A stretch of 64,000 nucleotides of DNA from NCBI GenBank assembly GCA_026392035.1, contig JAPLCX010000083.1:4597-68596 (forward strand), given 5' to 3'. Shown piece after piece: positions 3,083 through 62,320 of the stretch. The notes beneath the pieces are model-generated. The model was not told the origin of the DNA and did not search any database. It saw nothing but the letters and a program-made list of their open reading frames with translations. The stretch is from Candidatus Auribacterota bacterium. Lineage in GTDB: Bacteria > Auribacterota > Tritonobacteria > UBA1439. The position numbers and the translations under genes are program-made. The first letter of the stretch is position 1. Every line of letters begins with the position of its first letter.

Positions 3083-3153
3083 CTGTAGGGGCTTGATTTA
3101 TCAAGCCCGTCACCCATATATAATGCGGGTTCGATAAATCGAACCCCTACAAT
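3083..3153 (-). ncRNA. thiE leader with twin near-identical 9-bp hairpins and a competing outer stem (candidate cis-regulatory RNA; not a recognisable TPP riboswitch)
   Basis: Minus-strand RNA: GUAGGGG-[GGGUUCGAU uu AUCGAACCC]-gcauuauauaugggugac-[GGGCUUGAU aa AUCAAGCCC]-CUACAGG. Confidence 0.35.
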
Positions 3154-21777: not shown

Positions 21778-21781
21778 TTTT

Positions 21782-21911
21782 GAAAAAGGGGACAGGCTAC
21801 TTTTTCTGTTGAGTTTATGCATCGGTAGTGCTTTTCATCTGTGTGAGAGAGTGATTTTTTCTTTCCTTTTGATTCTTATCCGAGGTGAAAAAGTAGCCTG
21901 TCCCCTTTTTC
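21782..21911. repeat. perfect 25-bp inverted repeat (gaaaaaggggacaggctactttttc / gaaaaagtagcctgtcccctttttc) enclosing an 80-bp AT-rich loop
   Basis: Arms at 21782-21806 and 21887-21911; the loop holds the rfbD stop codon and the motif CACACAGATGAAAAGCAC (minus-strand reading). Confidence 0.75.
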
Positions 21912-22750
21912 ATGTACTCCCCTACCGCCTCTCTCCATTGCCGCATCGGGGCGCCAGTCAGCCCGGCGTAGCGTGAGCCATCGAGCGCCGAGAACGGCGG
22001 CCGCGGGGCGGGGCGAGAGAGGCGTTCGCTCGTGATCTCGTTCACCCTCACACCGCTGATCCCCCCGAGTTCGAGGATCGCGCGGGCGTACTCGCACCAG
22101 GAACAGACGCCGCTATTCGTCACATTGACGATGCCCCGGCAGTCTGTCATGAGCAGCGAGCCGATTGCCTTGGCGAGATCGCGCGCGTAGGTGGGGCAAC
22201 CGCGCTGGTCTCCCACCACCTCAAGGACAGGCTGCCTGGCCGCGGCCCTGAGTATCGTGTCAACAAAGTTCTTCCCGTGCAGGCCGAAGAGCCACGAGGT
22301 TCTGACAATGATATAGTCGTCGAGGCCGCGCCGGACCGCCTGCTCCCCGGCCAGTTTCGATTTCCCGTATGCGCTCTGGGGATTTGTCGCCGCGTCCTCT
22401 CGGTAGGGCTTTTTCGCGCGGCCGTCGAAGACGTAGTCCGTGCTCAGGTAAATCATCCTGGCGCAGGCGGCGCGGCAGGCCGCGGCGACGTACCCCGCCC
22501 CCTGCGCGTTAACGGCGAACGCACCGTCCGGGTCACCCTCGCACCCATCGACATCCGTGCGCGCGGCCGCGTTGACGACAGCATGCGGCCTGAGCTCCCT
22601 GATATACGCCTCCGTGCCCTCTCTATCGGTGATATCAACCTCGCCGATGTCAACGCCGGTGAGCTCCCACGCGGGCGAGAGAATATCCATCAGCTCGTGC
22701 CCGAGCATGCCCGCTGCCCCGATCACCAGGATTCTCTCATGTGTGGCCAT
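21815..22750 (-). CDS. rfbD: dTDP-4-dehydrorhamnose reductase
   Basis: ILVIGAAGMLG Rossmann start and YGKSK catalytic motif; the C-terminal ~30 codons run into the inverted-repeat element. Confidence 0.85.
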   Translation of the reverse strand: MATHERILVIGAAGMLGHELMDILSPAWELTGVDIGEVDITDREGTEAYIRELRPHAVVNAAARTDVDGCEGDPDGAFAVNAQGAGYVAAACRAACARMIYLSTDYVFDGRAKKPYREDAATNPQSAYGKSKLAGEQAVRRGLDDYIIVRTSWLFGLHGKNFVDTILRAAARQPVLEVVGDQRGCPTYARDLAKAIGSLLMTDCRGIVNVTNSGVCSWCEYARAILELGGISGVRVNEITSERLSRPAPRPPFSALDGSRYAGLTGAPMRQWREAVGEYMKKGTGYFFTSDKNQKERKNHSLTQMKSTTDA

Positions 22751-32811: not shown

Positions 32812-34440
32812 TCACTTTGCGACTCTGTAGATACTCACTCCTCCCCCATCGTAAATCTTTTCGAGATAACCGGCTGTCTCCAGGCTGAAGGGGCCTTTCA
32901 TGCGTTCGAAATTTCCAAAGTAGATATAACTGATGCCGTTCGCCTTTAAAAATTCTCGCTTCTCTCTCTCGGCCCTGGGACCGTAGAGCACCCAGTCCGC
33001 CAGCCGTGCTTTATCAGTGAACCTCAATGTCTCAGACCAGTGCCCCACATACACCCTGTTTCCGGTGTAGGCAGGCAGATAGAGGCCGCTCTTGTATGAA
33101 GAAATGACTGCAGCATCCTCATTATTGTTCTCCTTCATCCATCTCATTGCCGCGACATCTCCCTCATACAGGTAGAACTCGAGCGGCTTGGTTTTCATAT
33201 CGGTGATGCAGCTCATGACCTTGACGATGTTGGAAGGGGTGGTCATCAGAAAGATGAGCACGAGGATAATCGCCTCCACGTGACGTCTCTTCCCCGTGTC
33301 GAGGGCTGTCACCGGGATAAATATGCCAGAGCACGCGGGCAGGAGGTACCTGAATGTCCCCCGCGCCGCAAGGATGCACAGCGGCACGTGGACGGCCGTT
33401 GAGAGCCTCCGCTGGAAGGAGAGTGGCGCGTAGAGGAGTATTGCCACAGCGATTACCCATACCGCAAGGAGCCAATCGTCGCGATTTCCCCTCCTAAAAA
33501 TCCACGCCAGCTCAGGCATGGCGATGAAGAGCACGATGCCGTAGCCGATGACGTAGCTCAACGGGTGCGGGGACAAAAACTTCTCTTTCGACCACTCGAT
33601 GAATACGGGCTCCGTCCTAAAGAGATAAAGCATGTAGAGGAAGGCGGGCAGCGCGACGAGAGCGATAACCGCAGAGGAAGCAAGGACGCGCGCGGCGTCA
33701 TGCCGGTACTTGAAATACACCGTGATGCAATACGTCACCATAACTACCGTGATGGTCACCATGTCGACCGTGTGCACGAAGCTGAGGGCAACGAGCGAGA
33801 GCCCCCCATAGATACTGTTGACCAGTAGCCTCCCCCTGAGCGCCCTGAGCAAGAAGCCGAACCCGAGCAGCATCAGGGCCGCGGTGAGCGCGAATTGGGG
33901 GAATGAGAAAATCGTTTCAAACGTGATCGTCTCCGCGATCCAGTAGTCTATCGGGACGATGTTGAGCCTCGAGAAAAGCATCTCCCACTGGTGATCGGGG
34001 ATCACCCAGCAGAGCCCCGACGAGAACGCGCACAGGGCGAAGGCAAAGGTGCGCTCCCGTTGATCTTCGATAAAAAAGCCGATAAACCAATAGATCACAT
34101 AAAAGAGCAGCAGGGTGTAAAAAACCAGCGCGCCGTAGTAGACCGCGAGGGGGCTCAAACGCGAATAACGCGCCACGATTCCAAGCGTCCACGTGAACGG
34201 ATTGAAAAAAAGCGGCCGCTGTTCCTCCAGCGTAAAATCGCGCCTGATGAAAAATTTTCCCTCGGACGCCTGCTGGATGCGGGAGAGGTAGCTGTTCTGA
34301 TCATAGGGATGGTCGGGGAATCCCATGTACACCATCCCCGGAAGAGTATTGAAGTATCCCCAGGTATACGGGATGAACACAATCGCCACGACCGCGATTG
34401 CAATCGCCCTGACCACACATGCGTGTTTATCTGCGCTCAT
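32812..34440 (-). CDS. polytopic membrane protein, putative GT-C glycosyltransferase
   Basis: 542 aa, about 12 TM helices plus a C-terminal soluble domain; first gene of the GT-C block; upstream ATC(C/T)GTG array. Confidence 0.5.
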   Translation of the reverse strand: MSADKHACVVRAIAIAVVAIVFIPYTWGYFNTLPGMVYMGFPDHPYDQNSYLSRIQQASEGKFFIRRDFTLEEQRPLFFNPFTWTLGIVARYSRLSPLAVYYGALVFYTLLLFYVIYWFIGFFIEDQRERTFAFALCAFSSGLCWVIPDHQWEMLFSRLNIVPIDYWIAETITFETIFSFPQFALTAALMLLGFGFLLRALRGRLLVNSIYGGLSLVALSFVHTVDMVTITVVMVTYCITVYFKYRHDAARVLASSAVIALVALPAFLYMLYLFRTEPVFIEWSKEKFLSPHPLSYVIGYGIVLFIAMPELAWIFRRGNRDDWLLAVWVIAVAILLYAPLSFQRRLSTAVHVPLCILAARGTFRYLLPACSGIFIPVTALDTGKRRHVEAIILVLIFLMTTPSNIVKVMSCITDMKTKPLEFYLYEGDVAAMRWMKENNNEDAAVISSYKSGLYLPAYTGNRVYVGHWSETLRFTDKARLADWVLYGPRAEREKREFLKANGISYIYFGNFERMKGPFSLETAGYLEKIYDGGGVSIYRVAK

Positions 34441-34531
34441 CTGCGGCTATTGTGGACCAATGAAGAAATTTTACTCAGTATCTTCTGCGACTATTTCCAA
34501 GACAATCCGTGTCTATCTGTGTTCATCTGTG
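34428..34531. promoter_or_regulatory. ATC(C/T)GTG half-site array (three sites phased at 10 bp) upstream of and over the start of the first GT-C gene
   Basis: ATCCGTG 34505, ATCTGTG 34515, ATCTGTG 34525; ATCTGCG at 34428 and 34439. Confidence 0.45.
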
Positions 34532-34542
34532 GCTAATACTAA

Positions 34543-35682
34543 TCATCGAATGTAATCATTTTTTCTCAGATAGTCAATCATCGCATCAGCAACAACCCTG
34601 TGGCCATAGCTATTCCAGTGCCCTACTTTCCTATGCACCACCGGGCGAATCCTGCCATGGAGACAGGGTCCGAGATCCACATACCCTATCCTTGCTCCCT
34701 GGCAGAAGCGCTTGAGAAGCGGTGAATAGACTGAGTGTATGTCAGCGATTATGAAGCGGGCGCTATTTTCACGGCAGAGATCGTCAATCCGTTTGAGGAG
34801 CTTTTCTGTCAATGCTAACTCACGCGCCAGTTTCTCCGGGTCGCCTTCTCCCGCAACAGGTTCCGATCCAGCCCATACAGGGTGCGCGAGTCGGAATGTG
34901 AGCCAGTTATACAGGTGGGAGTGGGTAAGAAGTTCTCTCTTCAGATAATCCACCGACCAGTGCGATTCGGACTCTCTACCGGGGATGCCATAGCTCTGGG
35001 CGAGCAGTCTCTTTTTTGCCCAGTATGCCGGCTCGAAGGGAACAGGCGTATTCTTCAACACCAGCCGGTCCCCCTCCCCGACAAAGAACGGCTTCGGCTG
35101 CATCCCGTCTATCACCTTTGCGTTATTCCCCTCAACCACGTCGTTCCGGTCGAAGAGGAGGATCACGATGTCCGGGCGATACTTAAGGCCTTCGGTTTCC
35201 AGGACGAGAAGCTCCTGATCCGTGGAGTAACCGGCTTGGGCGAGGTTGATCACCTCCCATCCGGGGAGCCGCCGCTCCAGGATATCTGAAAATCTCTCCA
35301 ACGCCTCAACCCCCCAGCCCCACGCCGTCGAATCGCCGAGGACGACAATCCTCTTTTTGCCCCACTTTTCGTACGATCGCTCCCGCTCCCTGAATCCTCG
35401 CGAGTTATTCACGATTCTGTGCTTAAAATCGGGGAGGATGAACCACGTCTCAAGGTTCGGCACACCGGCATAGCCGAGGAGTGGATCGTATTGGTCGGGG
35501 AACGAATGAATTGTATCAGAGGTATAATCCGGGAATGGCGCGAAGAGGCGCAGGACTATCTCTGCTGCCGCCAGCGCAATCACAACGGCACCGAGCAGGG
35601 CGCACAGCCTCTTCGCCAGAGCAATCTTACCGCCAGTATCCATAATCCCGCCCGTGTCCACCTCGCAGGTGGATTTGAACAC
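34543..35682 (-). CDS. SGNH/GDSL-hydrolase family protein with N-terminal membrane anchor
   Basis: IVVLGDSTAWGWG block-I serine motif; start may be Met-14. Confidence 0.65.
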   Translation of the reverse strand: MFKSTCEVDTGGIMDTGGKIALAKRLCALLGAVVIALAAAEIVLRLFAPFPDYTSDTIHSFPDQYDPLLGYAGVPNLETWFILPDFKHRIVNNSRGFRERERSYEKWGKKRIVVLGDSTAWGWGVEALERFSDILERRLPGWEVINLAQAGYSTDQELLVLETEGLKYRPDIVILLFDRNDVVEGNNAKVIDGMQPKPFFVGEGDRLVLKNTPVPFEPAYWAKKRLLAQSYGIPGRESESHWSVDYLKRELLTHSHLYNWLTFRLAHPVWAGSEPVAGEGDPEKLARELALTEKLLKRIDDLCRENSARFIIADIHSVYSPLLKRFCQGARIGYVDLGPCLHGRIRPVVHRKVGHWNSYGHRVVADAMIDYLRKNDYIR

Positions 35683-35692
35683 GTTTGTTCAC

Positions 35693-37288
35693 CTACGATG
35701 TGGATTTCGGTCTGAGCTCGTAAAGTCTAAGACTCCCGTTATAATACGAAGTCACCGGCACAAAGTTAAAATCCTTTTCCAATGCCGCGCGGTACCGCGC
35801 CCACCAGTTGAACGTGAAACCGTCCATGTAGACCCTCTTCCCGCTGGCCAGGAGGCTCCTGATATACCCCGGGTTCTCCATGGCGACCTTGAGCGGAAGA
35901 TCCCTCTGCCTGATATACTCCACCTCCCTCGATATAGGCATATACGTACGGTGGGTGCCCCCTATGAAATAATGAGTCACATACACCCCATCAATACCTG
36001 ATATTAGAAAGGCATCATCCGGGGCGATTTGATTCAGCACCTTGAATCCCTCATACCACCACGTCGGGGCATGATGTGTGAGATCTCCGCCCATGAACGG
36101 CTTCGCGCAGCCCCACGCAGTGACCGCGAGGAGGATCGCCACGGGTACGCGCAGGAGAAGCCGGCGACTGACGCTCCCACCTCTGAATACGCCAAGGAGC
36201 ATCACCGTGCCGTTTGCCGCGAGCATGCACACAAACGGCACGACCGGCAGGAAAAACTTGGCCATCTGGAAGGCATAGAAGAGGAGCATGAAAAGGGTGC
36301 CGAAAATGAGTGAAAGTATCATCACTGCAAAACTGAATCTCACCCCTCCCCTATTTTGTCTCACACAGCCAGCGACTCCGAATATCGCGAGCAGAAGCAC
36401 GGCCGGGAAATATGGGGCGAACAGCGTCGGCCAGCTCAGGCCGAAGAAATGCCAGAGATAATAGACGATGTTTCCCCGTTGGTCTCCCCGTTCTGAAACG
36501 GCAGTGTTTCTGATTGCATAGTGCAGGGAGAAATAATCTTTACCTCCCTCCCATCGCTCCCAGTAGTAATAGCCAGTCTTGAATATATCGCCAAACGCCA
36601 TACCGTTATACATAAGGACAGGTGAAATGCCAACAACAAATCCAGCGACAAGATACGCGAGAGAAATGGCTTGGCAACGGATATTCCTGCGGGAACCGAT
36701 AAGGCACGTGGCGCATAGAGGCAGGAGAGTGATGATCCTCATTATATGTACCGCTGTTGAAAAACCACATAGCGCACCCGCAGCGAACCAGAGCCGCGAC
36801 GTTTTCCTCTCACCGACTGCGGCCATCCACGCGAGCCAGAGGCCTGCGATCATAAAGGTGTTGGAGACCATATCACTGATGAGTACCTGGCTGTAACCCA
36901 CATACGAAGGAGCTACCGAGAGAAAGAGGGCTGCAAGAAGAGCCGTCGGGCAGCCGAATACGGATCGCGCAAACAGGTACGCGAGCACTATGGAAGCGAG
37001 GCTAAATGCGAGAACCAGGTAAATCGCCGTGTGGAGTGCTGCCCCTGTCAGCAAGTAATAGAGCGCCAGTATGAGCGGAAAACCGCAGGGGTACATCAGC
37101 GGGAGCCTCAGATCATTTATATATATCCATAACCCCCTACCGTGTGCGAGATTATATCCCGCCACCGCGTACTGGGCGGAATCAGGAACGATCGCGAGAT
37201 CGGCGAGGTAGTACGGCTCAGTATAGCGGAGCGCAAACGCCAGGACCAACACCGCAGCGAGTGACAGCACTTCAAGTGGTTTTTTCAT
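35693..37288 (-). CDS. GT39 (ArnT/PMT-like) polytopic membrane glycosyltransferase
   Basis: About 530 aa, about 12 TM helices, ArnT/PMT_2-like N-terminal region; ATG at 37288 (ORF track extends to TTG at 37300). Confidence 0.7.
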   Translation of the reverse strand: MKKPLEVLSLAAVLVLAFALRYTEPYYLADLAIVPDSAQYAVAGYNLAHGRGLWIYINDLRLPLMYPCGFPLILALYYLLTGAALHTAIYLVLAFSLASIVLAYLFARSVFGCPTALLAALFLSVAPSYVGYSQVLISDMVSNTFMIAGLWLAWMAAVGERKTSRLWFAAGALCGFSTAVHIMRIITLLPLCATCLIGSRRNIRCQAISLAYLVAGFVVGISPVLMYNGMAFGDIFKTGYYYWERWEGGKDYFSLHYAIRNTAVSERGDQRGNIVYYLWHFFGLSWPTLFAPYFPAVLLLAIFGVAGCVRQNRGGVRFSFAVMILSLIFGTLFMLLFYAFQMAKFFLPVVPFVCMLAANGTVMLLGVFRGGSVSRRLLLRVPVAILLAVTAWGCAKPFMGGDLTHHAPTWWYEGFKVLNQIAPDDAFLISGIDGVYVTHYFIGGTHRTYMPISREVEYIRQRDLPLKVAMENPGYIRSLLASGKRVYMDGFTFNWWARYRAALEKDFNFVPVTSYYNGSLRLYELRPKSTS

Positions 37289-37293
37289 TTCTG

Positions 37294-38372
37294 GGGTCAA
37301 ACCCGAAGTTCTAAGTTATTGACTCCATTATTTTTCCTACGCGCTCTTCTAGCTGCTTGTTCTGCTTCAGCTCTATCTGAACCTTCTTATGAACCTGGTT
37401 GATTCGCTCACCGCTAACCCCACCCAATTCTTGGCCCATTTCTTTAAGACTCATAATCTTGAAATTAGTTCGATACGTTATATCGAGTAACACTTGCCGG
37501 GCTTCCTTATGTCTCGATCTACTCTTGCTAATTTCTTCCGCTTTGACTCCATATTCTTTTGCTACCGCTTCAGCCAATTCCTTAATTGGAATCGCCTTCT
37601 TAATCTCTTTTAAATGCGAGTAATCATAAACCAGCAATTCTCTTTGTTTCAAGATATTCGTAGAAACCCAGGTCACAAAATTATCAGTTCCCAACAAAGC
37701 ATTTGCTCTTGCTTTTTCCAATGGATTGTTTAGATCCAATGCTATCCCCTTCAAAACAAAATCCCTATACGCCGCCCTGCACAGCTTATCATCCCCTCCC
37801 ATATAGGCCAATACCATGTCATAACGCATAAAATCATCCCGTTCTCTTGACCTAATATAACCAAGAAAACTGCTCCAATAATACCCCCCCAATATACCAA
37901 TCTTTTTTTCAAGCGGAAGATTGCGATACTTCTCTAACCGCACAGGATTTAAATGAATGTAGCGGCTCAGTTCCAACAAGTATTCATCTGCTTCGATTAG
38001 AATAGCCTTATATCGACCTTGATAGAGATGCCCCGCGCGGTGATGGCGCAGATTGTAATACGTGATATAGGTAGTGTTAAAGCGCTGCATAAATCTACTT
38101 AGATTTGCATCTAATGTCCTCAACAAAAAATGGAAATGGTTACCCATTAATACATAACCGTGCACTTCTATATTGAATAATGCTGCGCTTTCCCTTAGAA
38201 TCTGAAGAAATTTGTTCCGATCTTTATCATCCCTAAAGATATTTGCCCTCTGGTTTCCTCGAGAGGTTACATGATACCATGCATTGTGATATTCTATTCT
38301 CAATGGTCTGGCCATGTTTAAAGAATATCATCAATGAGCACTATTGTCAATTTAGAACTTCGGGTTTGACCC
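37294..38372. mobile_element. compact transposase cassette bounded by perfect 21-bp inverted repeats (gggtcaaacccgaagttctaa / ttagaacttcgggtttgaccc)
   Basis: Repeats at 37294-37314 and 38352-38372 exactly enclose the AT-rich transposase gene, between two divergent GT39 genes. Confidence 0.6.
37311..38315 (-). CDS. IS200/IS605-like Y1 (HUH) transposase with C-terminal DnaA-type HTH (RAYT-like)
   Basis: HUH motif EVHGYVLMGNHFHFLL and catalytic-Tyr region, plus a C-terminal Bac_DnaA_C-like helix-turn-helix; markedly AT-rich. Confidence 0.75.
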   Translation of the reverse strand: MARPLRIEYHNAWYHVTSRGNQRANIFRDDKDRNKFLQILRESAALFNIEVHGYVLMGNHFHFLLRTLDANLSRFMQRFNTTYITYYNLRHHRAGHLYQGRYKAILIEADEYLLELSRYIHLNPVRLEKYRNLPLEKKIGILGGYYWSSFLGYIRSRERDDFMRYDMVLAYMGGDDKLCRAAYRDFVLKGIALDLNNPLEKARANALLGTDNFVTWVSTNILKQRELLVYDYSHLKEIKKAIPIKELAEAVAKEYGVKAEEISKSRSRHKEARQVLLDITYRTNFKIMSLKEMGQELGGVSGERINQVHKKVQIELKQNKQLEERVGKIMESIT

Positions 38373-38373
38373 T

Positions 38374-39843
38374 ATGAGATTCATGAGTTATCTATCATCG
38401 GTTTATTCACATAACAAAATCATATACCTCTCTCCGGTATTCTTGATAGGCATAATTTTTGCCATACTCAATAAGCCACTTTTGCTCAAAGAGCCTCCGG
38501 TATGGCCCGACGATTCCCTCTTCGCAAGCCCTGCGTATATCCTCGCCACCCATGGGTATCTGGGATCAGAGCTCTACTATGGAATTGTGCCCGGCCTGGA
38601 GCGCTACACCTATTCCAATCCCCCCCTCTATTTCCTTTTCCTGGCCGGGATCATAAAATTATTTGGCATGAACATCCTGGTCCTGCGTTGGACCTCTGTC
38701 GCCTTGGGGATGTCGCTTTTTGTCCTGCTTTTCTTCCTTGCAAAAGCGGTGGCCCGAACCGGATGGGTCGGCATCCTCGCCTGCACCCTTCTTGCCATCG
38801 ATCCGGAGTTCCTGCGAGGATGCCGTATCGCCCGCCCCGATATCTTGTGCGTGGTGCTGATAACCGCGGCATCGTACTTCTATGCGCGATGCATAAACTG
38901 TCCGGCACATAAAGTGAACCTCACTATGACAGGCCTCTGCATGGGGCTGGCGGTGCTCACCCATCCTCTGGGACTCATTGCCGTCATATCCATTTGCATC
39001 CATTATTTCATAAACGTCGCGCGCGGCAAAGCCAGGTTAAGCGGCACTGTCTATCTGCTCATCCCTTTTCTGCTATTGATTGCCCTCTGGGGGATATATA
39101 TCGCACAGCACTATACATACTTTGAGAAGCAGATGCTTGGCCAATTCGGCCGTAAAATGGGTGTCAGATACTGGCTGTGGTCGCTTTGGGGGCAGAGCGG
39201 ACGCCGGGTCTCATTGCTAATATATATCGCGGCAACGCTTGGCATATTTACAATATCATTAAGGGGAAAAGATAACTCCCTCTTCTTTCTCTCACTATTA
39301 TGCTCCACGGCATTAATCATGGCGCTCAGCGGCAGAGAGATGTGGTACTCGATTTACTATGCGCCCTTTTGCGCATTCGCGGTGGCATTATGTGCAGGCC
39401 GGCTATGGAGAATACGCGCGCCGGTGCCATGCATCGCTCTGTTCTTTATCGGATTCCTCATATACAATAATGCGGCTGATTACCGATGGACCTATATCGC
39501 CACGATGCGCTATGACTACTCCGGCATCTGCGAGGATATAGAGAAGGAACTGCGCCCACATTCAACCATTTTCCTGCACTGTGTTCCCGACCCTTATTTC
39601 TGCCTGATAAATAGCCCTAAGAGCCTCACTATCCGGGAATTTCATCCTACCGCCCCCCTTGCTGACTTAAAGGCAGCCATCGCGCGTTCGGACTATCTGA
39701 TCATCAGTCCGGGCGATACGTACCTGGTCAAGGACATGCCGCCGTGGCGCATCAAGCGTATTGTGCGCATCGGCGCCCATCAACCGGGGCAATATCAGTT
39801 GCTCTTAGTAGAATTTAGAAATATCCGGCGGGAGGAAGAATAA
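38374..39843 (+). CDS. GT39 (ArnT/PMT-like) polytopic membrane glycosyltransferase
   Basis: 489 aa, the only plus-strand gene of the block; ArnT-like N-terminal loop and about 11 TM helices. Confidence 0.65.
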   Translation: MRFMSYLSSVYSHNKIIYLSPVFLIGIIFAILNKPLLLKEPPVWPDDSLFASPAYILATHGYLGSELYYGIVPGLERYTYSNPPLYFLFLAGIIKLFGMNILVLRWTSVALGMSLFVLLFFLAKAVARTGWVGILACTLLAIDPEFLRGCRIARPDILCVVLITAASYFYARCINCPAHKVNLTMTGLCMGLAVLTHPLGLIAVISICIHYFINVARGKARLSGTVYLLIPFLLLIALWGIYIAQHYTYFEKQMLGQFGRKMGVRYWLWSLWGQSGRRVSLLIYIAATLGIFTISLRGKDNSLFFLSLLCSTALIMALSGREMWYSIYYAPFCAFAVALCAGRLWRIRAPVPCIALFFIGFLIYNNAADYRWTYIATMRYDYSGICEDIEKELRPHSTIFLHCVPDPYFCLINSPKSLTIREFHPTAPLADLKAAIARSDYLIISPGDTYLVKDMPPWRIKRIVRIGAHQPGQYQLLLVEFRNIRREEE

Positions 39844-39852
39844 GGGTTTCTT

Positions 39853-41553
39853 TCAATCAGGTATTGGGTTGCCCTTTCGGACAAAATCAGCTTCTTTCAA
39901 CACAAGTTGATCATTCTTGTATACCACTTTTACGCTCCGGGGATCAATCCGGATAAAGCTCTCATCTGACACATACACAAACGGAATGTGCACCGCACCT
40001 ATAAAAAGTAGCTTGTCCATCTGTCCGCTGCTGGCGAGACCCATGATTTGCTGAGGGCTTTTGAGTTGCCTCATTCGATAATTTTTAGAATATAGCCTGA
40101 AGTACTTATCAATGATATCTGGCGCCCGGGGTTGCGACAACGATAGCGGCAACACGTATGTTTTAGCATCAAAATAATGATCCAGATTCACCGCCAAATT
40201 GTAAATATCCTTATGACTGAATAGCATAAAGCAGAAAGGCGGCCATCTCCATTTCTTGGAGCTTTTTTCGGCCTGCAGGTGACCTGTCGTTACATCAATC
40301 AGAAGACGGGTATTATTAATATTGGCCCACACCAATACCGAGAAGACAGCTATTGCCCCTGCAAGATAAGCCCTCTTCAATAGCGGATAACATCTCCGAA
40401 TATGATTCAGGAGCAGTTCATCGCTGCACATACCTATAGTAAGAAACATCGGGATCAATATCGAGTCCCACCTCTCGTATACCCATGAGTCATATACCGA
40501 TGAATGCAGGAAGTGGAGAAGAAAGAAGAAGAAAAGGATTCGACTCGCCCTTTGTGTTCTTGTTTTGAATAATGCGATCAAGTATAGCAGGAAAAAGGAA
40601 CCTATCACTACGTGGCCGAGAATATCATGGTCCATAATATTCAAAAGAAACAGCTCAACTTCCGCATACAGAGACGATTTTATGCCCTGATACACAAAAT
40701 CCACCTGCACAGAGAAAGGCTGGCTCCCCTGGATGAAAAAGAAACGCCCAGGCACACGGTGAAAAACCCAGAAGTCCGTCTTTGAACCAATCGGCTCAGC
40801 GCTGCTCTGATACCAGTAAATACAATACAGACTTCCCATACACAGCACAATGCTCAGTATTATGTGAGCCATCGCCTTCAGCCTTGTTTTCCGTGAGAAG
40901 TCCTTTAGGAAAAGCGGTGTCAGAATAAGCGGCGATGTAACGATACTCTTCATGTGTATTGCCAAACCAAGCGAAACAGAGACACCGATGAGCCATGCGG
41001 CCTTATAAGTATGATGTCTGGCCCAATCGCCGCCCAGAGCGCCCGCAAAAAACAAAAGGGCCATTATAAAAAGCAGATCGCACAGTGTTGCAATAACGTT
41101 ATCGTCACAGGTGGTGATAAGCCAGCATGGCCCAAACGTCAGAAATGGAATAAGACTGATGACCAGGCCGATCCAAAAGTTATTAATCAACTTGCGACAG
41201 ATATAATAAAGCAGGCCGAATGTGCCAAGGGCGGAGAGATACGAGATAATTTTGAACCCCATCAAAAAATCCCATCCGTTCCACAGCGAATATGCGCCCG
41301 TCACCAAATACACCAAGGGGAAAAACAGCAGATGGAACTTGGAAAACCAACCCGTCACCCCAAAGGTCTTGAAAAAAGTCAGTGTATCCTTCTTCCCATC
41401 GAGATCCATGACATAATTCAACGTGTCACTGTCAATGCATAGGTTGCCAAATATCCGCGAGTAATAAAAAATCGCCAGTCCGGAAACAGCAAGTAGGAAT
41501 AGAAAAAGATGAAGATATTTACTGAAATCTTTATTCATACATGCATCCCACAT
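39853..41553 (-). CDS. polytopic membrane protein, putative GT-C glycosyltransferase (AT-rich, likely acquired)
   Basis: 566 aa, many TM helices plus a C-terminal soluble domain; strongly AT-biased codon usage unlike its neighbours. Confidence 0.45.
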   Translation of the reverse strand: MWDACMNKDFSKYLHLFLFLLAVSGLAIFYYSRIFGNLCIDSDTLNYVMDLDGKKDTLTFFKTFGVTGWFSKFHLLFFPLVYLVTGAYSLWNGWDFLMGFKIISYLSALGTFGLLYYICRKLINNFWIGLVISLIPFLTFGPCWLITTCDDNVIATLCDLLFIMALLFFAGALGGDWARHHTYKAAWLIGVSVSLGLAIHMKSIVTSPLILTPLFLKDFSRKTRLKAMAHIILSIVLCMGSLYCIYWYQSSAEPIGSKTDFWVFHRVPGRFFFIQGSQPFSVQVDFVYQGIKSSLYAEVELFLLNIMDHDILGHVVIGSFFLLYLIALFKTRTQRASRILFFFFLLHFLHSSVYDSWVYERWDSILIPMFLTIGMCSDELLLNHIRRCYPLLKRAYLAGAIAVFSVLVWANINNTRLLIDVTTGHLQAEKSSKKWRWPPFCFMLFSHKDIYNLAVNLDHYFDAKTYVLPLSLSQPRAPDIIDKYFRLYSKNYRMRQLKSPQQIMGLASSGQMDKLLFIGAVHIPFVYVSDESFIRIDPRSVKVVYKNDQLVLKEADFVRKGNPIPD

Positions 41554-43260
41554 TTAATGTCTTGCCTTGCACCATAGGATAAGAATAGCAAATCCTCCCA
41601 ACATTGACACTACCACCCCCGTATAATAAAGTGGTGGTCTATAATACAAGGATACTTCCGCGTCAGAAGGGGCGATAGGCACCGAAAGGAGCCCATTCTT
41701 TGAAATTGCCTGCTTCCCTCCTTCCGTGCGCCAGCCTGGATCGTAACGCTGATTTATCATAAGCAAATCCCGCGCGGTACATCGAACTCTGTAGCACAGC
41801 CTGTTCGGGCTCCACATAACAGTTTCTACAGAACCGCTCCCATGAGCAAGCCAGACCTCGCCCCGGTAGCCTGGTTCATCGAAGGCATTCACGCCCACCA
41901 GCGGCAGATCGAATCCGTCGTAATTATTAATCAAGCCTTCGTTCTGAAGAAAACAGAGGAACGAGCGAGGTCCCTGCTGCTCTTCTTTAGGAAGTCGCAC
42001 CTGGTGGAAGGGACCTGACCTTTTTGGCTCAAGCGGAGCACTGGTGGAGACGCTGGTGTAGATTGGGGCTGACACCACCATGAGGTCCGTCACCACAGCC
42101 ACAGTAGCTATCCCTAATGCCATGGTGAGCGCCCATGGCCATTCTCCGTGAAGCACGCGCACCAATTCCTCCAATCGCGAAACGGTCATCGCGCTCATCA
42201 GCGCGAGACAGAATATCAATATCACCCGGAACCTAACCGGATCATGAAGGGATGTGAACATGGGGAGCAGATGTATCCAGTGCCATGGTGACATCATTCC
42301 GTAATCACCAAACATGAGGCAGAAGAATAGCAGTGCCATAATCCCCATGGGGAGCGCTCTTTTACGCGCAAGAAAAGGCGCGCTCACGGCGAGGAGCATC
42401 GGGAGCACCCCGACGTAGGCTCCATATTCCCACCATCCGAGCCAGGCACCCGTAAAGTTGGTCTCACTTATCTGGTCGCGCCCGAGAAACATGCGTGGTA
42501 GCGCCAACCAAGAAAGCACCGGCTCTCTCCAAAACGTCGGCCGAGGATTCCTTGAGAGAAATTCCGTCATCGGGACTAGCTTCACTCCGCTCAGTGCCAG
42601 GCCGAGTATCACCGTGATGAGAAAGACTCCAATCGGTAAAAGACGCTTTCTCATAACAGCCTCGATCAGCGCGTATAGCGAAAGGAAGAGAAGCGCGTAC
42701 GGCACCGGATATATCCCGCCTTCGAAAATCATGAGCGCAAGCACCAGACCTCCTCCCGCGCACCAGCGCATATTCTCCAGCGCCTTTTCATAAAAAAGGA
42801 TCAGCCATGGAAGATATGCAAAGGGAATAAATTCGTCATGCCAGTGCGACATATAGAGCGGGTACCAGCTGCTGAACATGTACACGAAGGCACATAGAAA
42901 AGGTGCGAATCGCCCTGGCGTAAAACGCCTTCCGAGCAGATATCCCCCGCAGAGCCCTACCCAGAGAACCAAGAGAATGCGCAGCTTCGACCCTACCACC
43001 GGTCCAAAGGCCACGGTGAGTATAAAGGCGGGAGAAAAAAATGAGGAAATGGGATACGCGAAAAATGGCACTCCTCCCGATGCCCATGGATTCCAGAAGG
43101 GGAACTGGTGATACCTCAAGAGAGTGAGCCGCGGCACGCCGGCAAGGAGAAAGGCCCGGTGCCACACGTCTATACCCCACCCCCCCAGCTGGAAGGCGAC
43201 GGGAAGCCACATCACAACTGAGAGTGCCAGAAGCAGCTTTACCGCTGCCGACGTTTTCAT
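41554..43260 (-). CDS. YfhO-like polytopic membrane protein (GT-C)
   Basis: QFPFWNPWASGGVP motif typical of the YfhO family; ORF reaches 43368, start likely Met-37. Confidence 0.55.
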   Translation of the reverse strand: MKTSAAVKLLLALSVVMWLPVAFQLGGWGIDVWHRAFLLAGVPRLTLLRYHQFPFWNPWASGGVPFFAYPISSFFSPAFILTVAFGPVVGSKLRILLVLWVGLCGGYLLGRRFTPGRFAPFLCAFVYMFSSWYPLYMSHWHDEFIPFAYLPWLILFYEKALENMRWCAGGGLVLALMIFEGGIYPVPYALLFLSLYALIEAVMRKRLLPIGVFLITVILGLALSGVKLVPMTEFLSRNPRPTFWREPVLSWLALPRMFLGRDQISETNFTGAWLGWWEYGAYVGVLPMLLAVSAPFLARKRALPMGIMALLFFCLMFGDYGMMSPWHWIHLLPMFTSLHDPVRFRVILIFCLALMSAMTVSRLEELVRVLHGEWPWALTMALGIATVAVVTDLMVVSAPIYTSVSTSAPLEPKRSGPFHQVRLPKEEQQGPRSFLCFLQNEGLINNYDGFDLPLVGVNAFDEPGYRGEVWLAHGSGSVETVMWSPNRLCYRVRCTARDLLMINQRYDPGWRTEGGKQAISKNGLLSVPIAPSDAEVSLYYRPPLYYTGVVVSMLGGFAILILWCKARH

Positions 43261-43301
43261 AACTGGTTCACCACTACCGTTATCCCCTCCAGTCCCTCGT
43301 A

Positions 43302-45278
43302 TCAGGGAGTCAGCCCTGGACTCACGTGCGACGCCGCCTCCCTGTCTCTTTGCGCAGCGGCGGAGCACCCCATCCTATCGAGGAGGGCGGCGCGTCCGAG
43401 CAGGAGTTCTCTCTGTTGAGGAGAAGAATCGATCACGTTTGAAACATCCACAATGCGCGCGAGCAGCGCTGCTCGTGCCTTTATTTCCTGCTCCTCTGGC
43501 CTCACCGCGAGCGCGCGGAGATGAATCTCGAGCGATTTCCGATACTCACCTCTCTCAATGAGAATCGCCGTGAGGTCGTTGAGCACGAGCGGATTCAAGG
43601 GATCCATTTGAAGGGACTTCTCAAAATAGGGGATCGCCGCCTCCCTGTCACCCGAATAGTCATAGCTGTGCCCGATCACCGCGTACCTGTAGGCGCTCTC
43701 CGGTGTCTCATAGAATATGAAGAGAAGAATCATTGCACATGTGATCAGAATACAGAGCCACAGAAAACACATGTCCAGCGATGTCAAAGGAGATCGTGCT
43801 CCCACTGTTCCCATTCTTTTCCCCGTGGCTAGGAACAAGGCGATACCTCCGCCAATGAGTGTGACCAACACCACGAGGCTCGCCCCGCGAGGACATCCCA
43901 GGAGTGTGAGCCAGTTCGGCCGCACATTACCCCTCAGGAAGGATGGCAATAAAAATTCCCTCACTGGATTATGCAGGTGCTCATGGGCAGATGCCCCCGC
44001 CGCGGTGCCAATAAAATTAAAGATTACCGAATAAATAACGAGAACGCTGAGCATCCAGCCGTACCCCTTGGGCTGCCGCGCCATGAGGGACGCGATCGGT
44101 ACTATAAAAAACGGAATCACAGGGACTAAAAACCTCGGACCGTAACCCGCGCCGCCCGCCCACGCAGTGTACGAAGAGTTGAAGATGGCATAGCCGAGAA
44201 CAGTGATAAGGCATAGCCAAAAAAGTCTCCCCCTGCCCAGGCCGACGACACTCTCCACCGCATCGTTATCTGTACTCCTTTTTGCGAGCGAATACAGCCC
44301 TGGCACTATCAGCAGCAAAAACGGCGAGACAAAAAATATGCCGCGAAAAGGGCTCACCATCAACATCAGGAACGGGATGAGTTCCGGCATTCTCACGCCG
44401 AAAAGACCCTGTGACTGAACCTCCCTCGCGATCGGCATCGCCTCGTGGGCATAGGGGAAACTGAGCATGTCACCAAAGCAGGCGTAGTTATACAAGAGGA
44501 TTAAAAAAACACCGGGGATGCACCCGAGGGCAAAAATGATGGTATCTCCGATCCGCCGGAAAGAGAATGCAGTGAAGATGAATATCACGCACAGAATGAG
44601 CATCACCTGGTAGTCAGCCGCGACCGCGAGCCCGCCGAGCACTCCCGCCACCAGAAGCGACGAGCGGGCGAAACGGCCCCTCGACTCCGCTCGGGACAAG
44701 CTCGTCGGCGAAATGGCGGAAGCCAAGACTCTTCTCCATTTTAGCAATACTATAAAACAGCCGAATAACAGTACGGCAGCGAGCTGGTGTCCCACAAACT
44801 GAGTGCTGTATGGGAAGGCCATGGTCCCCAGGCTGTAGGCGACGACGAGCAGATCGGCATAATATTCAGATCGCACGAAACGGTTGAGAACATCGTGCAG
44901 GAGAAGGGCCAGGAGCACGCTCGGCAGGGCGATCACGCACACCTGAACCAGGTAGAGATAAACCCAGTCGGGAATGGCGAAATACCTTCCGACTGTTTCC
45001 CATGCCAACCAGTACACAGGAACGGCGAGGAACGATGTCGCGGGAGCCTTCCCGCTGTAGTAATGGCCCTGATAAAACGCGGCGTCTATTCCGCCGAGGT
45101 AATATTTCTCTATGGAAAAGCTCCGATCGAGCGCGAGGCTTTTGGCGAGATAGAACCTGACGCTGGTGTTCGTACCGAAATTTTCCGGGGACGGCGGCGG
45201 CACGAAAAAGGTGTAGGCAATCAGAATGGTGCACGTCAGCGCCGCGCAGTGCAGCATGCGATTGGACCGCTTGGCCAT
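43302..45278 (-). CDS. GT39-like membrane glycosyltransferase with C-terminal TPR repeats (TMTC-like architecture)
   Basis: About 500-aa polytopic N-domain then TPR repeats (YRYAVIGHSYDYSGDREAAIPYFEKSLQMDP...). Confidence 0.65.
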   Translation of the reverse strand: MAKRSNRMLHCAALTCTILIAYTFFVPPPSPENFGTNTSVRFYLAKSLALDRSFSIEKYYLGGIDAAFYQGHYYSGKAPATSFLAVPVYWLAWETVGRYFAIPDWVYLYLVQVCVIALPSVLLALLLHDVLNRFVRSEYYADLLVVAYSLGTMAFPYSTQFVGHQLAAVLLFGCFIVLLKWRRVLASAISPTSLSRAESRGRFARSSLLVAGVLGGLAVAADYQVMLILCVIFIFTAFSFRRIGDTIIFALGCIPGVFLILLYNYACFGDMLSFPYAHEAMPIAREVQSQGLFGVRMPELIPFLMLMVSPFRGIFFVSPFLLLIVPGLYSLAKRSTDNDAVESVVGLGRGRLFWLCLITVLGYAIFNSSYTAWAGGAGYGPRFLVPVIPFFIVPIASLMARQPKGYGWMLSVLVIYSVIFNFIGTAAGASAHEHLHNPVREFLLPSFLRGNVRPNWLTLLGCPRGASLVVLVTLIGGGIALFLATGKRMGTVGARSPLTSLDMCFLWLCILITCAMILLFIFYETPESAYRYAVIGHSYDYSGDREAAIPYFEKSLQMDPLNPLVLNDLTAILIERGEYRKSLEIHLRALAVRPEEQEIKARAALLARIVDVSNVIDSSPQQRELLLGRAALLDRMGCSAAAQRDREAASHVSPGLTP

Positions 45279-58983: not shown

Positions 58984-58999
58984 AAAACATTACACGATC

Positions 59000-59050
59000 T
59001 TCTCCGTGCCCTCCGTGCCCCTGCCTGCCGGCAGGCAGGTCCGTGGTGAA
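59000..59050. repeat. CACGGAG-repeat / CCTGCCTGCCGGCAGGCAGG palindrome element, copy 3 (inverted relative to copy 1)
   Basis: tctccgtgccctccgtgcc-cctgcctgccggcaggcagg-tccgtggtgaa. Confidence 0.65.
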
Positions 59051-59128
59051 AACCAATTAAACAAAAGCGCACGGGCGCTCCATTCCTCCACGCCCGCGCG
59101 CCTCGCGTGCTGCGCCTCTTCAACAACC

Positions 59129-59595: not shown

Positions 59596-59636
59596 GCCCA
59601 TTGCCTTTTTTCTTTTCACTATTCACCATCCACTTT

Positions 59637-60735
59637 TCACTCTCCACTGTGTCTGAGGTACGCCTCGATAAACGGCTGGATCTCTCCATCCATGACCGCC
59701 TGCACATTGCCTGTTTCATGCCTGGTCCGGTGGTCCTTGACCATCTGGTAGGGCTGGAAGACGTAGGAGCGGATCTGGCTTCCCCAGGCAATTTCCTGTT
59801 TCTCCCCCCGCTCCTTTGCAAGTTCCTCCTCTTTGATCCGCCGGAAGTGCTCCGCCACGCGCGCGGTGAGCACGCGCATCGCGGTCACGCGGTTCTTGTA
59901 CTGCGAGCGCTCGTTCTGGCACTGCACGACGATCCCGGTCGGGAAGTGCGTGATGCGGACGGCGGAGTCCGTCTTGTTCACGTGCTGGCCGCCCGCCCCG
60001 TGGGCGCGGAAGGTGTCGATCCTCAGATCCTCGTCCTTGATCTCGATCTCCTGCTCTCCCTCCACCTCCGGCACCACGTCCGCCGATGCGAACGAGGTGT
60101 GCCGCCGCTTATTCGAGTCGAACGGGGAAATCCGCACGAGCCGGTGAACGCCGCGCTCCGCCTTAAGGTAGCCATAGGCGTAGGCTCCCCTGACGGACAG
60201 CGTGACGCTGCGGAATCCGGCCTCCTCGCCCGGGGTCATGTCGAGGACCTCCACCGCGCACCCGCGCTGCTCCGCCCACCGCCGGTACATCCGAAGCAAC
60301 ATCGCGACCCAGTCGCAGGACTCGGTGCCGCCGGCCCCCGCGTGGATCATCATGATCGCCCCCGCCTGGTCGTGCGGGTCAGCCAGCATCGACTTGAGCT
60401 CGAGCTCGCGGTACTCGCCTTCGACGCGCTCGAGGTCCTTCGCCAGTTCTGGGGCGGAGCTCTCGTCCCCCTCAGCCCTGATGAGTTCGAGGAATACGCC
60501 GATGTCCTCCGCTTCCTTGCTGATCTTCTCCCAGCACCCGACTGTCTCCTTGATCCTGCTGAGCGTTTCGGTGACGGTCCGTGCGCCGGCCTGGTCGCTC
60601 CAGAAACCCGACCTGCCTATCTTCTCCTCGAGGCCGGAAATCTCCTTCCGCTTGCCGGGGACGTCAAAGGTAGTCTCCGAGCTTCTGCAGGCCATCAATG
60701 AGCCGCATTTGCCGGTCGATCAGTTCGTCAAGCAT
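59637..60735 (-). CDS. prfB: peptide chain release factor 2, requiring programmed +1 frameshift
   Basis: Frame-0 MLDELIDRQMRLIDGLQKLGDYL* ends at CTT TGA C (60669-60663); the +1 frame continues DVPGKRKEISGLEE... with RF2 GGQ and SPF motifs. Confidence 0.9.
60660..60675 (-). promoter_or_regulatory. prfB: prfB autoregulatory +1 frameshift site (CTT TGA C preceded by internal SD-like GGAG)
   Basis: Minus strand reads ...CTCGGAGACTACCTTTGACGTC...; canonical RF2 recoding heptamer. Confidence 0.85.
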
Positions 60736-60749
60736 ATAACCCTCCGGAT

Positions 60750-60802
60750 AAATCCCAAATCCCAAACCTTAAATCCCAAATCCAAAATCCCAAATCCCAA
60801 TA
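60750..60802. repeat. TTTGGGA heptamer repeat element, copy C (seven tandem heptamers in the prfB 5' leader)
   Basis: Minus strand reads ATTGGGA TTTGGGA TTTTGGA TTTGGGA TTTAAGG TTTGGGA TTTGGGA, ending 15 nt before the prfB ATG. Confidence 0.75.
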
Positions 60803-60838
60803 TAGCAACTGCATCTCCAGGCGGCAATCGTCACATAA

Positions 60839-62320
60839 TCAGGAGCGCCTGAACAGCCTCCCGCAGAAGATGGTGAGTACTGCCGCCAGGCAGTAGATCG
60901 AAAAAACATTCCCCCACTTCGTATACAGCGTGGGTGTTCCCCCGATCCGGATGTTCTCCACCGCCGTTCCCTGGACGCAGAGCTCCCTTCCCAACGCATC
61001 CCGCAGAACATGATACACCCTTCCATGTCGATCGATGAAGCATGAGAGGCCGCTGTTGGTGGCCCGCACCATGGGAACCGCGTTTTCAACGCACCGGAAC
61101 ACCGCGTAGGCGGCGTGCTGGTATGGCTGGCTCGACCTGCCGAACCAGGCATCGTTCGTTATATTGACGAGGAACCGCGCCCCCCGCTGCACGGCCTCGC
61201 GCGCGAGATCGGGGAATATGTCCTCGAAACAGATGAGCGGGGCGAAGTCCACCTGAGAAATCGAGAAGACGGTCGCGGTCTTCCCCTGGCTGAAGCCCTC
61301 CTCGAAGGGGACGAGCTTTTTCAGGAACGGAAAAAACCGCTTGCACGGGATGATCTCGCCGAAGAGGACGAGGTGGATCTTGTCGTAGCGCGCGACCGGG
61401 CCCCCCTGTGCGTCAAGAAGGAAGGCGCTGTTGAAATAGTCAGTGCCGCGGTCCGTCGCAATCGCGTGCGTACTGCCGAAGAAGAGCGGCGTCCGCGTCT
61501 CCTGCTGGAGCGCGGCAAGCGAGTCCCTGAGAACCGGGTCATACATGTAGTAACCGGGCGCCGAGGTCTCCGGCCAGACAATGATGTCCGGTTTCTCGTT
61601 CATGACCGAGAGGGTGAGGTCATGGAAGCGTTGGATAATCTCCCGCTGGAAACCCTCCCCGAATTTTTCTTCCTGTGGCACATTCCCCTGGATGACGGCG
61701 ACCTTGACCAATTTCGCCTCCGGGGCGCCTATGACAAGGCTCACGGCGCCATACGCGGAGCACAACCCCACCACCAGGAATGTCGCGGCAGCCGGCGCCA
61801 CGCATCGCCGGCCGCGCCTGAGCGCACACTCGTATATCACCGCGTTCACGAGCACGACGATGAATGACACGCCATAGACCCCGGTCAAAGAGGCTATCTG
61901 TATGAGGTGCAGAAACCGGTACTGCGTCGCTCCCAGCACACCCCAGGGAAGCCCCGTTAAGGCGTACGTCCGAACGTATTCCAGGGCGGTCCAGAAGAGC
62001 GGGGCGAAGAGCCAGCCGGGTACTCTCCCTTCCCGGCGCACCCAGTTCATGCCGATCCCGAAAACCGGGAAGTAGAGGGCGAGATAGAGCGTGAGGACGA
62101 AAAAGCCAGCGACAGTCACGTTATTGAGCCAGTAGAAGAGGCTCCAGTAAAAGGCGACTCCCCCCGCGTACCCGATCCGGAGTGTCTCCTTCCATCCCCT
62201 GCCTTCGATGGCCGTGAAAAAAGGTATCAGGCAGATCCAGGCGAGGCAATTCCAGTCCGTGTTCGGGAAGGACACGGTCATCATCAGACCGGATAAAATC
62301 GACAGGAGGTATGGTTGCAT
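60839..62320 (-). CDS. lnt: apolipoprotein N-acyltransferase
   Basis: Eight-TM N-domain plus C-terminal nitrilase-like domain (VVWPETS..., CFEDIFP catalytic Cys region). Confidence 0.9.
   Translation of the reverse strand: MQPYLLSILSGLMMTVSFPNTDWNCLAWICLIPFFTAIEGRGWKETLRIGYAGGVAFYWSLFYWLNNVTVAGFFVLTLYLALYFPVFGIGMNWVRREGRVPGWLFAPLFWTALEYVRTYALTGLPWGVLGATQYRFLHLIQIASLTGVYGVSFIVVLVNAVIYECALRRGRRCVAPAAATFLVVGLCSAYGAVSLVIGAPEAKLVKVAVIQGNVPQEEKFGEGFQREIIQRFHDLTLSVMNEKPDIIVWPETSAPGYYMYDPVLRDSLAALQQETRTPLFFGSTHAIATDRGTDYFNSAFLLDAQGGPVARYDKIHLVLFGEIIPCKRFFPFLKKLVPFEEGFSQGKTATVFSISQVDFAPLICFEDIFPDLAREAVQRGARFLVNITNDAWFGRSSQPYQHAAYAVFRCVENAVPMVRATNSGLSCFIDRHGRVYHVLRDALGRELCVQGTAVENIRIGGTPTLYTKWGNVFSIYCLAAVLTIFCGRLFRRS

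Follow-up and report, generated by a model that had tools for sequence, protein, structure and literature searches.

What is the 1,079-bp segment that lies between two divergent glycosyltransferase genes at positions 37294-38372 of a 64-kb stretch of DNA from a Candidatus Aureabacteria metagenome-assembled genome (MAG)? The whole stretch is called the window here, its coordinates are used throughout, and L001, L002 and so on are labels of the loci or contigs with which it was compared. The host region is an envelope-glycan cluster with Wzy_C, MurJ, AsnB and YfhO genes. An earlier note, made from the sequence alone, had described the segment as a RAYT-like Y1 transposase gene enclosed by perfect 21-bp inverted repeats, and regarded such repeats around such a gene as unusual. 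Our analysis indicates that the segment is most probably a TIRtron, i.e. a minimal transposable unit of one TIRYT gene and its own cognate terminal inverted repeats (TIRs), fixed at this site and mobile at the level of the family. RAYT-like genes with terminal inverted repeats in place of repetitive extragenic palindromic (REP) sequences are described by Di Nocera, De Gregorio and Rocco (2013, BMC Genomics 14:522, PMC3733652), where the units are called TIRtrons and the proteins TIRYTs. The combination once thought unusual is thus the hallmark of a family that was already named in 2013. The window element adds a member to this class, for which the searched literature holds no experimental study, and its layout is ordinary for the family.

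The gene and its repeats

The 21-mer GGGTCAAACCCGAAGTTCTAA occurs at exactly two sites in the window, 37294-37314 (+) and 38352-38372 (-), which together form a perfect inverted repeat as had been noted before. No further match was found in the window when up to 3 mismatches were allowed, and a search for the 21-mer in 100 shuffled sequences gave 0 matches. The arms lengthen to 24 nt at 96% identity with one mismatch (to 37317 and 38349). The tips of the two arms read GGGGTCAA and aGGGTCAA, and the 34-nt unit reads TCATCTCAGGGTCAAACCCGAAGTTCTAAGTTAG. The following features were assigned, the last two being context:

37294-37314, no strand: terminal inverted repeat at the 3' end of the TIRYT gene, 24 nt when extended to 37317; it holds the TAG stop codon (37311-37313) and has 0-1 changes in syntenic relatives
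38352-38372, no strand: terminal inverted repeat upstream of the TIRYT gene, 24 nt when extended to 38349; its inner end meets the -35 box
37311-38315, minus strand: TIRYT gene (334 amino acids); its domains are a RAYT-like Y1 HUH nuclease and a DnaA-domain-IV-like helix-turn-helix (HTH), with a poorly predicted middle between them
38130-38138, minus strand: HUH motif His60-Phe61-His62, invariant in 21 aligned homologues
37959-37961, minus strand: putative catalytic Tyr119 in the motif SRYIHLNP, invariant, with Ser117 adjoining
37317-37598, minus strand: C-terminal HTH (residues 240-333), homologous to DnaA domain IV by profile match; predicted local distance difference test (pLDDT) score 80-94
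38322-38350, minus strand: sigma-70-type promoter TTGACA-17-TATTCT with TG extension; 6 nt lie between the -10 box and the ATG, and the transcript is predicted to be leaderless
35693-37288, minus strand: PMT_2 glycosyltransferase gene, downstream and co-directional; ATG 5 nt past the repeat, no terminator between
38374-39843, plus strand: PMT/PMT_2 glycosyltransferase gene, divergent; ATG 1 nt past the repeat

Both flanking genes encode PMT_2/PMT (GT39-type) domains, and the arms do lie as close to their starts as had been claimed, with 5 nt to the ATG at 37288 (-) and 1 nt to that at 38374 (+). The interior is AT-richer than its surroundings, again in line with the earlier note: GC content is 0.36-0.41 within the element and about 0.51-0.59 in the adjoining genes. 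A search of Rfam over 36800-38900 gave no RNA family match.

The RAYT-like Y1 HUH gene with a DnaA-type HTH was likewise confirmed. Pfam finds Y1_Tnp in the 334-residue protein (E 1.4e-12), and the NCBIfam model REP_Tyr_transpos scores 61.2 bits, under its equivalog cut-off of 80. For the C-terminus, Bac_DnaA_C (PF08299) is sub-threshold with the single sequence (E 1e-3), the C-terminus of TIGR00362 (DnaA) matches with E 1e-6, and a family profile built from 21 homologues (46-85% identity) and compared with the PDB matches residues 240-333 to DnaA domain IV (8btg, E 4e-8; 1j1v, E 8e-7). In the 21-homologue alignment the HUH motif (H60-F-H62), Tyr119 in SRYIHLNP and a further motif GHLYQGRYK are invariant or almost so. 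AlphaFold gives a model of intermediate quality (mean pLDDT 68) in which the N- and C-terminal domains are good and the middle is poor. According to Foldseek, this predicted fold most resembles 4ER8, a structure of the E. coli RAYT in complex with a REP hairpin, and then the TnpA proteins of ISDra2 and IS608, and DnaA was aligned to the modelled C-terminus. With more than 7,500 proteins at E <= 1e-3, nearly all of about 335 residues, the family is very large; its members come from Auribacterota, Desulfobacterota, Planctomycetota, Verrucomicrobiota, Nitrospirota and other phyla.

A strong sigma-70-type match was obtained at 22 homologue loci, and in all 22 of them 5-8 nt separate the -10 box from the ATG. 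The 14 nt that precede the ATG at these loci show no evident Shine-Dalgarno sequence. Since the -10 box is this near to the start codon and a Shine-Dalgarno sequence is missing, a leaderless mRNA is predicted. Across the family TTGACA usually forms the inner end of the upstream arm. In the window an antisense promoter-like site (38173-38201) points at the divergent gene. L108 1474-2478 shows 100% DNA identity with the window, and its public gene call starts internally and gives 259 instead of the true 334 residues. We considered a real truncation and rejected it, as identical DNA marks the short gene as a gene-caller artefact; the start was likely miscalled because the true one is leaderless and has no Shine-Dalgarno sequence.

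How does the element compare with known systems? As in the TIRtrons of PMC3733652, a RAYT-like Y1 gene with HUH motif and catalytic Tyr (Y1_Tnp, invariant H60-F-H62/Y119, 4ER8 fold) is combined with terminal inverted repeats that are not REP hairpins, that stand at a fixed distance and that have a GGGGWSAS-type start. According to the same paper, many TIRtron repeats have GGGGWSAS in common, with constant spacing to the gene, and in some genomes they form moderately abundant dispersed families. In the window the tip agrees with the motif at 7/8 positions and stands 57 nt from the ATG, the family mode being 51-53 nt; the tip of close relatives, GGGGTCAG, agrees at 8/8. Apart from the 7/8 tip, the difference from the TIRtrons described there is the host, an uncultured Candidatus Aureabacteria genome. 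Several features go beyond what the available part of PMC3733652 reports: a predicted leaderless mRNA with its -35 box at the inner repeat end, the repeat-bounded copies, the derivatives resembling miniature inverted-repeat transposable elements (MITEs) and the orthologous empty site.

Quentin, Siguier, Chandler and Fichant (2018, BMC Genomics 19:475, PMC6006769) defined subclass 2.1 of TnpA_REP, in which the 2.1.2 members have a Bac_DnaA_C-like HTH. They saw no REP-like sequences near subclass 2.1 genes and wrote that this subclass "probably corresponds" to TIRYT. By domain architecture and motifs only, the window protein is assigned to subclass 2.1.2: it appears as a long Y1 protein with a C-terminal Bac_DnaA_C/HTH_23/HTH_28-like HTH, Ser beside Tyr (S117-R-Y119) and no REP-like neighbours. 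The link to TIRYTs is suggested in that study, whereas here cognate repeats are shown in 50/66 loci. These two papers, both comparative, are the only ones in the searched literature to mention TIRYTs or TIRtrons. The Y1 HUH transposase fold and the catalytic motifs are common to the window protein and IS200/IS605 elements (IS608, ISDra2). However, the latter have no terminal inverted repeats, carry subterminal hairpins on one strand and encode a TnpA of about 130-150 residues without HTH, in contrast to the repeats and the 334-residue HTH protein found here. For annotation this means that TIRYT genes should not be read as IS200 or canonical RAYT genes, and that gene callers may miss the leaderless start.

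Repeat-gene-repeat as a mobile family architecture

We collected 80 homologue loci from GTDB genomes of many phyla, 66 of them with an intact open reading frame (ORF), and determined the best inverted repeat between upstream and downstream flanks. A score of at least 13 was reached in 50 of the 66 loci and in 0 of 256 control window pairs taken from the same loci; an earlier null made of mismatched locus pairs was inflated by the shared motif and had been replaced. These 50 loci share one layout: the arms start with (G)GGGTCA, the left arm ends in the -35 box and the right arm lies over the stop codon. When arms are aligned by their tips GGGTCA is invariant, usually with G before it. The tip is mostly found 51-58 nt before the ATG, and the other arm overlaps or closely trails the stop codon. 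The order repeat-gene-repeat is the architecture of the whole family.

The two arms of a locus agree with each other at a level of at least 0.8 from position -1 to +22, including columns with less than 0.5 bit of family conservation. Position 12, for example, has 0.08 bit of conservation and yet 96% arm-to-arm agreement. As the arms agree at unconserved columns, they co-vary. This co-variation fits equally with one protein that reads both ends or with arms that pair in single-stranded DNA. Two further traits of the window were considered as family traits and rejected. Tight abutment to neighbouring starts was discarded since orientation and distance of the neighbour genes are random across 48 loci. 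The same holds for AT-richness: element GC follows host GC with a median difference of -1.9 points, and a GC gap of -11 to -15 points is seen in the window's clade and few others only.

In other genomes the unit moves as a block and yields MITE-like derivatives. Two loci of one Nitrospirota MAG (L033/L042) are 97.6% identical over 1052 bp and identity stops at the repeats; two loci on a Planctomycetia chromosome, 680 kb apart (L053/L055), are 97% identical over 1126 bp; and L009/L010 as well as L065/L066, each from different genomes, have the unit alone in common. Full-length copies on plasmids or phages were not found, and carriage there is rare. In a Syntrophaceae MAG (L013) we noted MITE-like elements of 175 bp (2134-2308) and 89 bp (5025-5113) without ORF. 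Their 23-bp ends, GGGGTCAAACCTCCACTATTGAC, are those of the neighbouring TIRtron, whose 3' end adjoins the 89-bp element. A second, different TIRtron was observed in the same glycan cluster of the Candidatus Aureabacteria MAG GCA_026391995.1 (L105 9230-10094), though elsewhere in the cluster, after a 532-residue gene. It has 19-bp perfect ends GGGGTCAAACCTTAACAAT and a 262-residue TIRYT gene without most of the HTH domain, and in this genome the spacer upstream of PMT_2 is empty.

History of the locus and solo copies of the repeat

The element is syntenic in L001, L002, L005, L089 and L098, with the same repeats and TIRYT proteins that are 78-85% identical. The gene order in these relatives is TIRYT, PMT_2, GDSL lipase and a 542-residue gene, and the opposite flank holds a divergent gene for a membrane protein. 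PMT_2 is identical to that of the window in 10 contigs, and in the three of them whose DNA was read it is 100% identical to the window. Each arm has 0-1 base changes across the syntenic lineages though synonymous divergence (dS) of the TIRYT gene is 0.4-1.1; in L005 the same A-to-G change is present in both arms. Over this range of dS the ratio of nonsynonymous to synonymous divergence (dN/dS) of the gene is 0.12-0.19. Since its insertion the element has been inherited in place under purifying selection and with almost invariant repeats.

By searching with the flanking gene and not with the element we found relatives that lack the element at this site (L104, L102, L105 and L106). In L104 the empty site is truly orthologous: the divergent gene there shares 75% identity with its counterpart in the filled L001, and nucleotide homology is back within about 20 nt of both start codons. 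The spacer between the called genes of empty sites is 130-390 nt long, and the spacer sequences of L102, L104 and L105, which were read, hold a TATAAT box about 10 nt before the PMT_2 ATG. No repeat-like sequence was found in the empty sites with up to 6 mismatches. As orthologous empty sites exist, the element was inserted between the divergent GT39-type genes, just as the earlier note had proposed. Filled sites retain just 1-13 nt and 4-6 nt outside the arms, and hence the whole spacer was replaced by the element. This entry took place between two divergent GT-C glycosyltransferase operons in the ancestor of a Candidatus Aureabacteria sub-clade. The earlier note had also reasoned that synteny in all relatives would speak for a domesticated gene. 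The gene is syntenic in every contig that carries the element; in other relatives it is absent. With so few nucleotides left outside the arms, any promoter of either flanking operon must sit inside the element, and judging from the sequence both operons must now be transcribed from there.

A comparison of 32812-43368 with L001, L002 and L005 gave a TIRYT gene tree that does not match the tree of the flanks. Between the window and L001 dS is 0.42 for TIRYT and 1.43 for PMT_2, and between L001 and L002 it is 0.81 and 0.23, respectively. The gene adjoining the upstream repeat encodes a 489-residue PMT in the window and an unrelated protein of 556-576 residues in L001, L002 and L005. The discordant dS values and the differing neighbour gene point to a mosaic glycan locus with a synteny break at the repeat boundary.

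Is the repeat found without its gene? A scan of GTDB representative genomes gave 0 matches to the 21-mer. In metagenome contigs of the JGI it is present in 16 stretches, of which 4 are the syntenic TIRtron and the rest are about 10 distinct single-copy sites. These solo sites lack a TIRYT gene, and with up to 5 mismatches allowed no partner arm was found. Solo copies, mostly intergenic, have TCTCA/CATCTCA on the outer side and GTTAG on the inner side, as does the 3'-end arm. The contigs have a tetranucleotide signature like that of the window (r 0.86-0.92, compared with a median of 0.54 for unrelated loci), and a family of GTAG-tagged REPs is common to them and the window. We rejected the idea that solo copies abut start codons: the TGAGATGA common to them belongs to the repeat, and at most copies no ORF begins there.

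Many solo copies form the first module of a modular, mosaic intergenic repeat of about 180 bp, which was located at these sites:

L094, 3011-3192
L092, 4377-4557
L096, 7643-7823
L091, 5569-5749
L100, 4719-4900

Its later modules are nested hairpins (GCCGCGGAT...ATCTGCGGC; ACGCTGAT...ATCAGCGT). They are also found alone, for example at L099 11153-11291 and L097 10830-10928, and modules of a similar kind make up the spacers at the empty sites L102 and L104.

Mechanism and competing explanations

How might such a unit work? The TIRYT would be translated from a leaderless mRNA whose 5' end lies shortly inward of the upstream repeat, with the inner end of the repeat as -35 box. Its DnaA-like HTH may bind the double-stranded repeats, and as the upstream repeat extends into the -35 box, the gene's own promoter would thereby be repressed as well. 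The HUH/Tyr domain would then nick and rejoin single-stranded DNA at the invariant GGGTCA tip. The expected outcome is movement of repeat-bounded DNA (whole units and MITEs) in some genomes, and possibly the seeding of single 3'-type repeats in the lineage of the window. Such repeat spreading would parallel the role that has been proposed for RAYTs and REPs. The TIRYTs present a mechanistic puzzle: a single-strand-specific Y1 HUH nuclease goes together with double-stranded-looking repeats and a dsDNA-binding HTH. The locus and its relatives make up a compact test set for it, with filled and empty sites, co-varying repeats, solo copies, MITE-like derivatives and a conserved leaderless promoter that is embedded in the repeat.

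Several observations weigh against reading the segment as a TIRtron of this kind. The tips in the window match the published GGGGWSAS at 7/8 positions, and the residues with which DnaA reads the DnaA box are not conserved in the TIRYT HTH. The solo copies come from related species (74-84% nucleotide identity) and not from the window's own genome. A second full copy was not seen in the window's lineage, so present mobility of the whole unit there is no more than a possibility. The gene tree of the Y1 gene is incongruent with its flanks, so some recombinational exchange has occurred.

A small but real chance is left for co-option, in which the element is the sole promoter region of two divergent envelope-glycosylation operons and the repeat-bound TIRYT gates both of them as well as its own leaderless gene. 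If this were true, a tyrosine transposase would act as a local transcription factor while its nuclease still seeds solo repeats elsewhere. A stricter version, which we regard as decidedly unlikely, is a domesticated local regulator: transposition has ceased, and the protein binds the repeats and controls both glycosyltransferase operons via promoters inside the element. The single syntenic locus, the dN/dS of 0.12-0.19 and the near-invariant repeats would suit a regulator. So would the loss of the native spacer and of the TATAAT box seen in empty sites (1-13 and 4-6 nt are left outside the repeats), the lack of a terminator before PMT_2 and the antisense promoter-like site at 38173-38201 towards the divergent gene. 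However, HUH and Tyr are invariant and would be needless for a pure DNA-binding protein, the solo repeats in related genomes point to DNA processing, and neighbour orientation and distance are random family-wide. The invariant catalytic residues together with the solo copies argue that nuclease activity may well have been retained.

The earlier note had also suggested a classical REPtron, with the arms as REP hairpins that are spread by a canonical RAYT. We consider this quite improbable, and the sequence itself largely contradicts it. In its favour are the top fold match to the E. coli RAYT, the sub-threshold match to REP_Tyr_transpos, the solo arm copies dispersed in related genomes and a GTAG REP family in the lineage. 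The arms themselves do not behave as REPs, since each folds with only -2.6 kcal/mol into a 4-bp stem and has no GTAG tag. The GTAG REPs that do exist do not flank the gene (e.g. window 3085-3150), REP-like sequences are absent near subclass 2.1 genes (PMC6006769), and the protein scores 61 bits, short of the equivalog threshold of 80 bits, has about double the length of a RAYT and carries an additional HTH. A comparison with RAYT/REP systems (REPtrons and REPINs of Enterobacteria and Pseudomonas) is nevertheless apt, as the repeat is dispersed as solo copies in related genomes. Both have the HUH/Tyr fold, with 4ER8 as top structural match, and a single-copy syntenic gene under purifying selection with short inverted repeats of which dispersed copies exist, for the window's repeat in related genomes. 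They differ in that the repeats of the window are not GTAG-tagged hairpins, the protein is twice as long with a predicted dsDNA-binding HTH, and dispersed copies are few (about 10 seen) compared with hundreds; moreover, the whole TIRtron still duplicates in other genomes.

Very improbable is an invertible switch, in which recombination between the 21-bp arms flips a promoter segment and read-through drives either outward operon (phase variation). Inverted repeats that abut two outward-facing start codons, with an internal promoter and no terminator, would permit it, and two related contigs (L003 and L004) break in or just past one arm. The left flank of L004 is normal, though; L003, L004 and the 10 contigs with identical PMT_2 agree in flanks and orientation, and all contigs recovered have one orientation, including L001, L002, L005, L089 and L098, which are from different samples. 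Neighbours in the family are not arranged in this way, and inversion of double-stranded DNA is not known for Y1 HUH enzymes. Finally, the reading of the repeats as a duplicated or palindromic target site or as chance, for which the bare presence of an inverted repeat speaks and nothing more, is refuted by arms that include the element's own -35 neighbourhood and stop codon, by cognate arms in homologues from unrelated contexts, by empty sites without similar sequence within 6 mismatches and by shuffles that give no match.

The TIRtron thus remains our preferred reading. The earlier note had also linked the RAYT-like gene with dispersed palindromes in the same stretch. The 21-mer is dispersed as solo copies in related genomes; the palindromes of the window itself belong to unrelated families. 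One of them is a GTAG-tagged REP doublet at 3085-3150, inverted and REPIN-like (GTAGGGGCTTGATTTATCAAGCC ... GGTTCGATAAATCGAACCCCTAC). Its family also occurs in L002, L088, L092-L094, L096, L099, L100, L102 and L103, and in L086 and L099 a GTAG REP lies within about 20-30 nt of a solo TIR copy. A 54-nt repeat, unrelated to the 21-mer, is found at 2295-2348 and 58999-59052, inverted, 94% complementary and 56.6 kb apart; it includes the palindrome CCTGCCTGCCGGC(G)GGCAGG and tandem CACGGAG motifs. At 21781-21806 and 21887-21912 there is a perfect 26-bp inverted repeat (TGAAAAAGGGGACAGGCTACTTTTTC) with an 80-nt spacer, which overlaps the 3' end of the ORF 21815-22750 (-). A short tandem array of CCCAAAT-like units (TAAATCCCAAATCCCAAACCT and others) at 60749-60804 sits between the ORFs 59601-60701 (+) and 60839-62320 (-).

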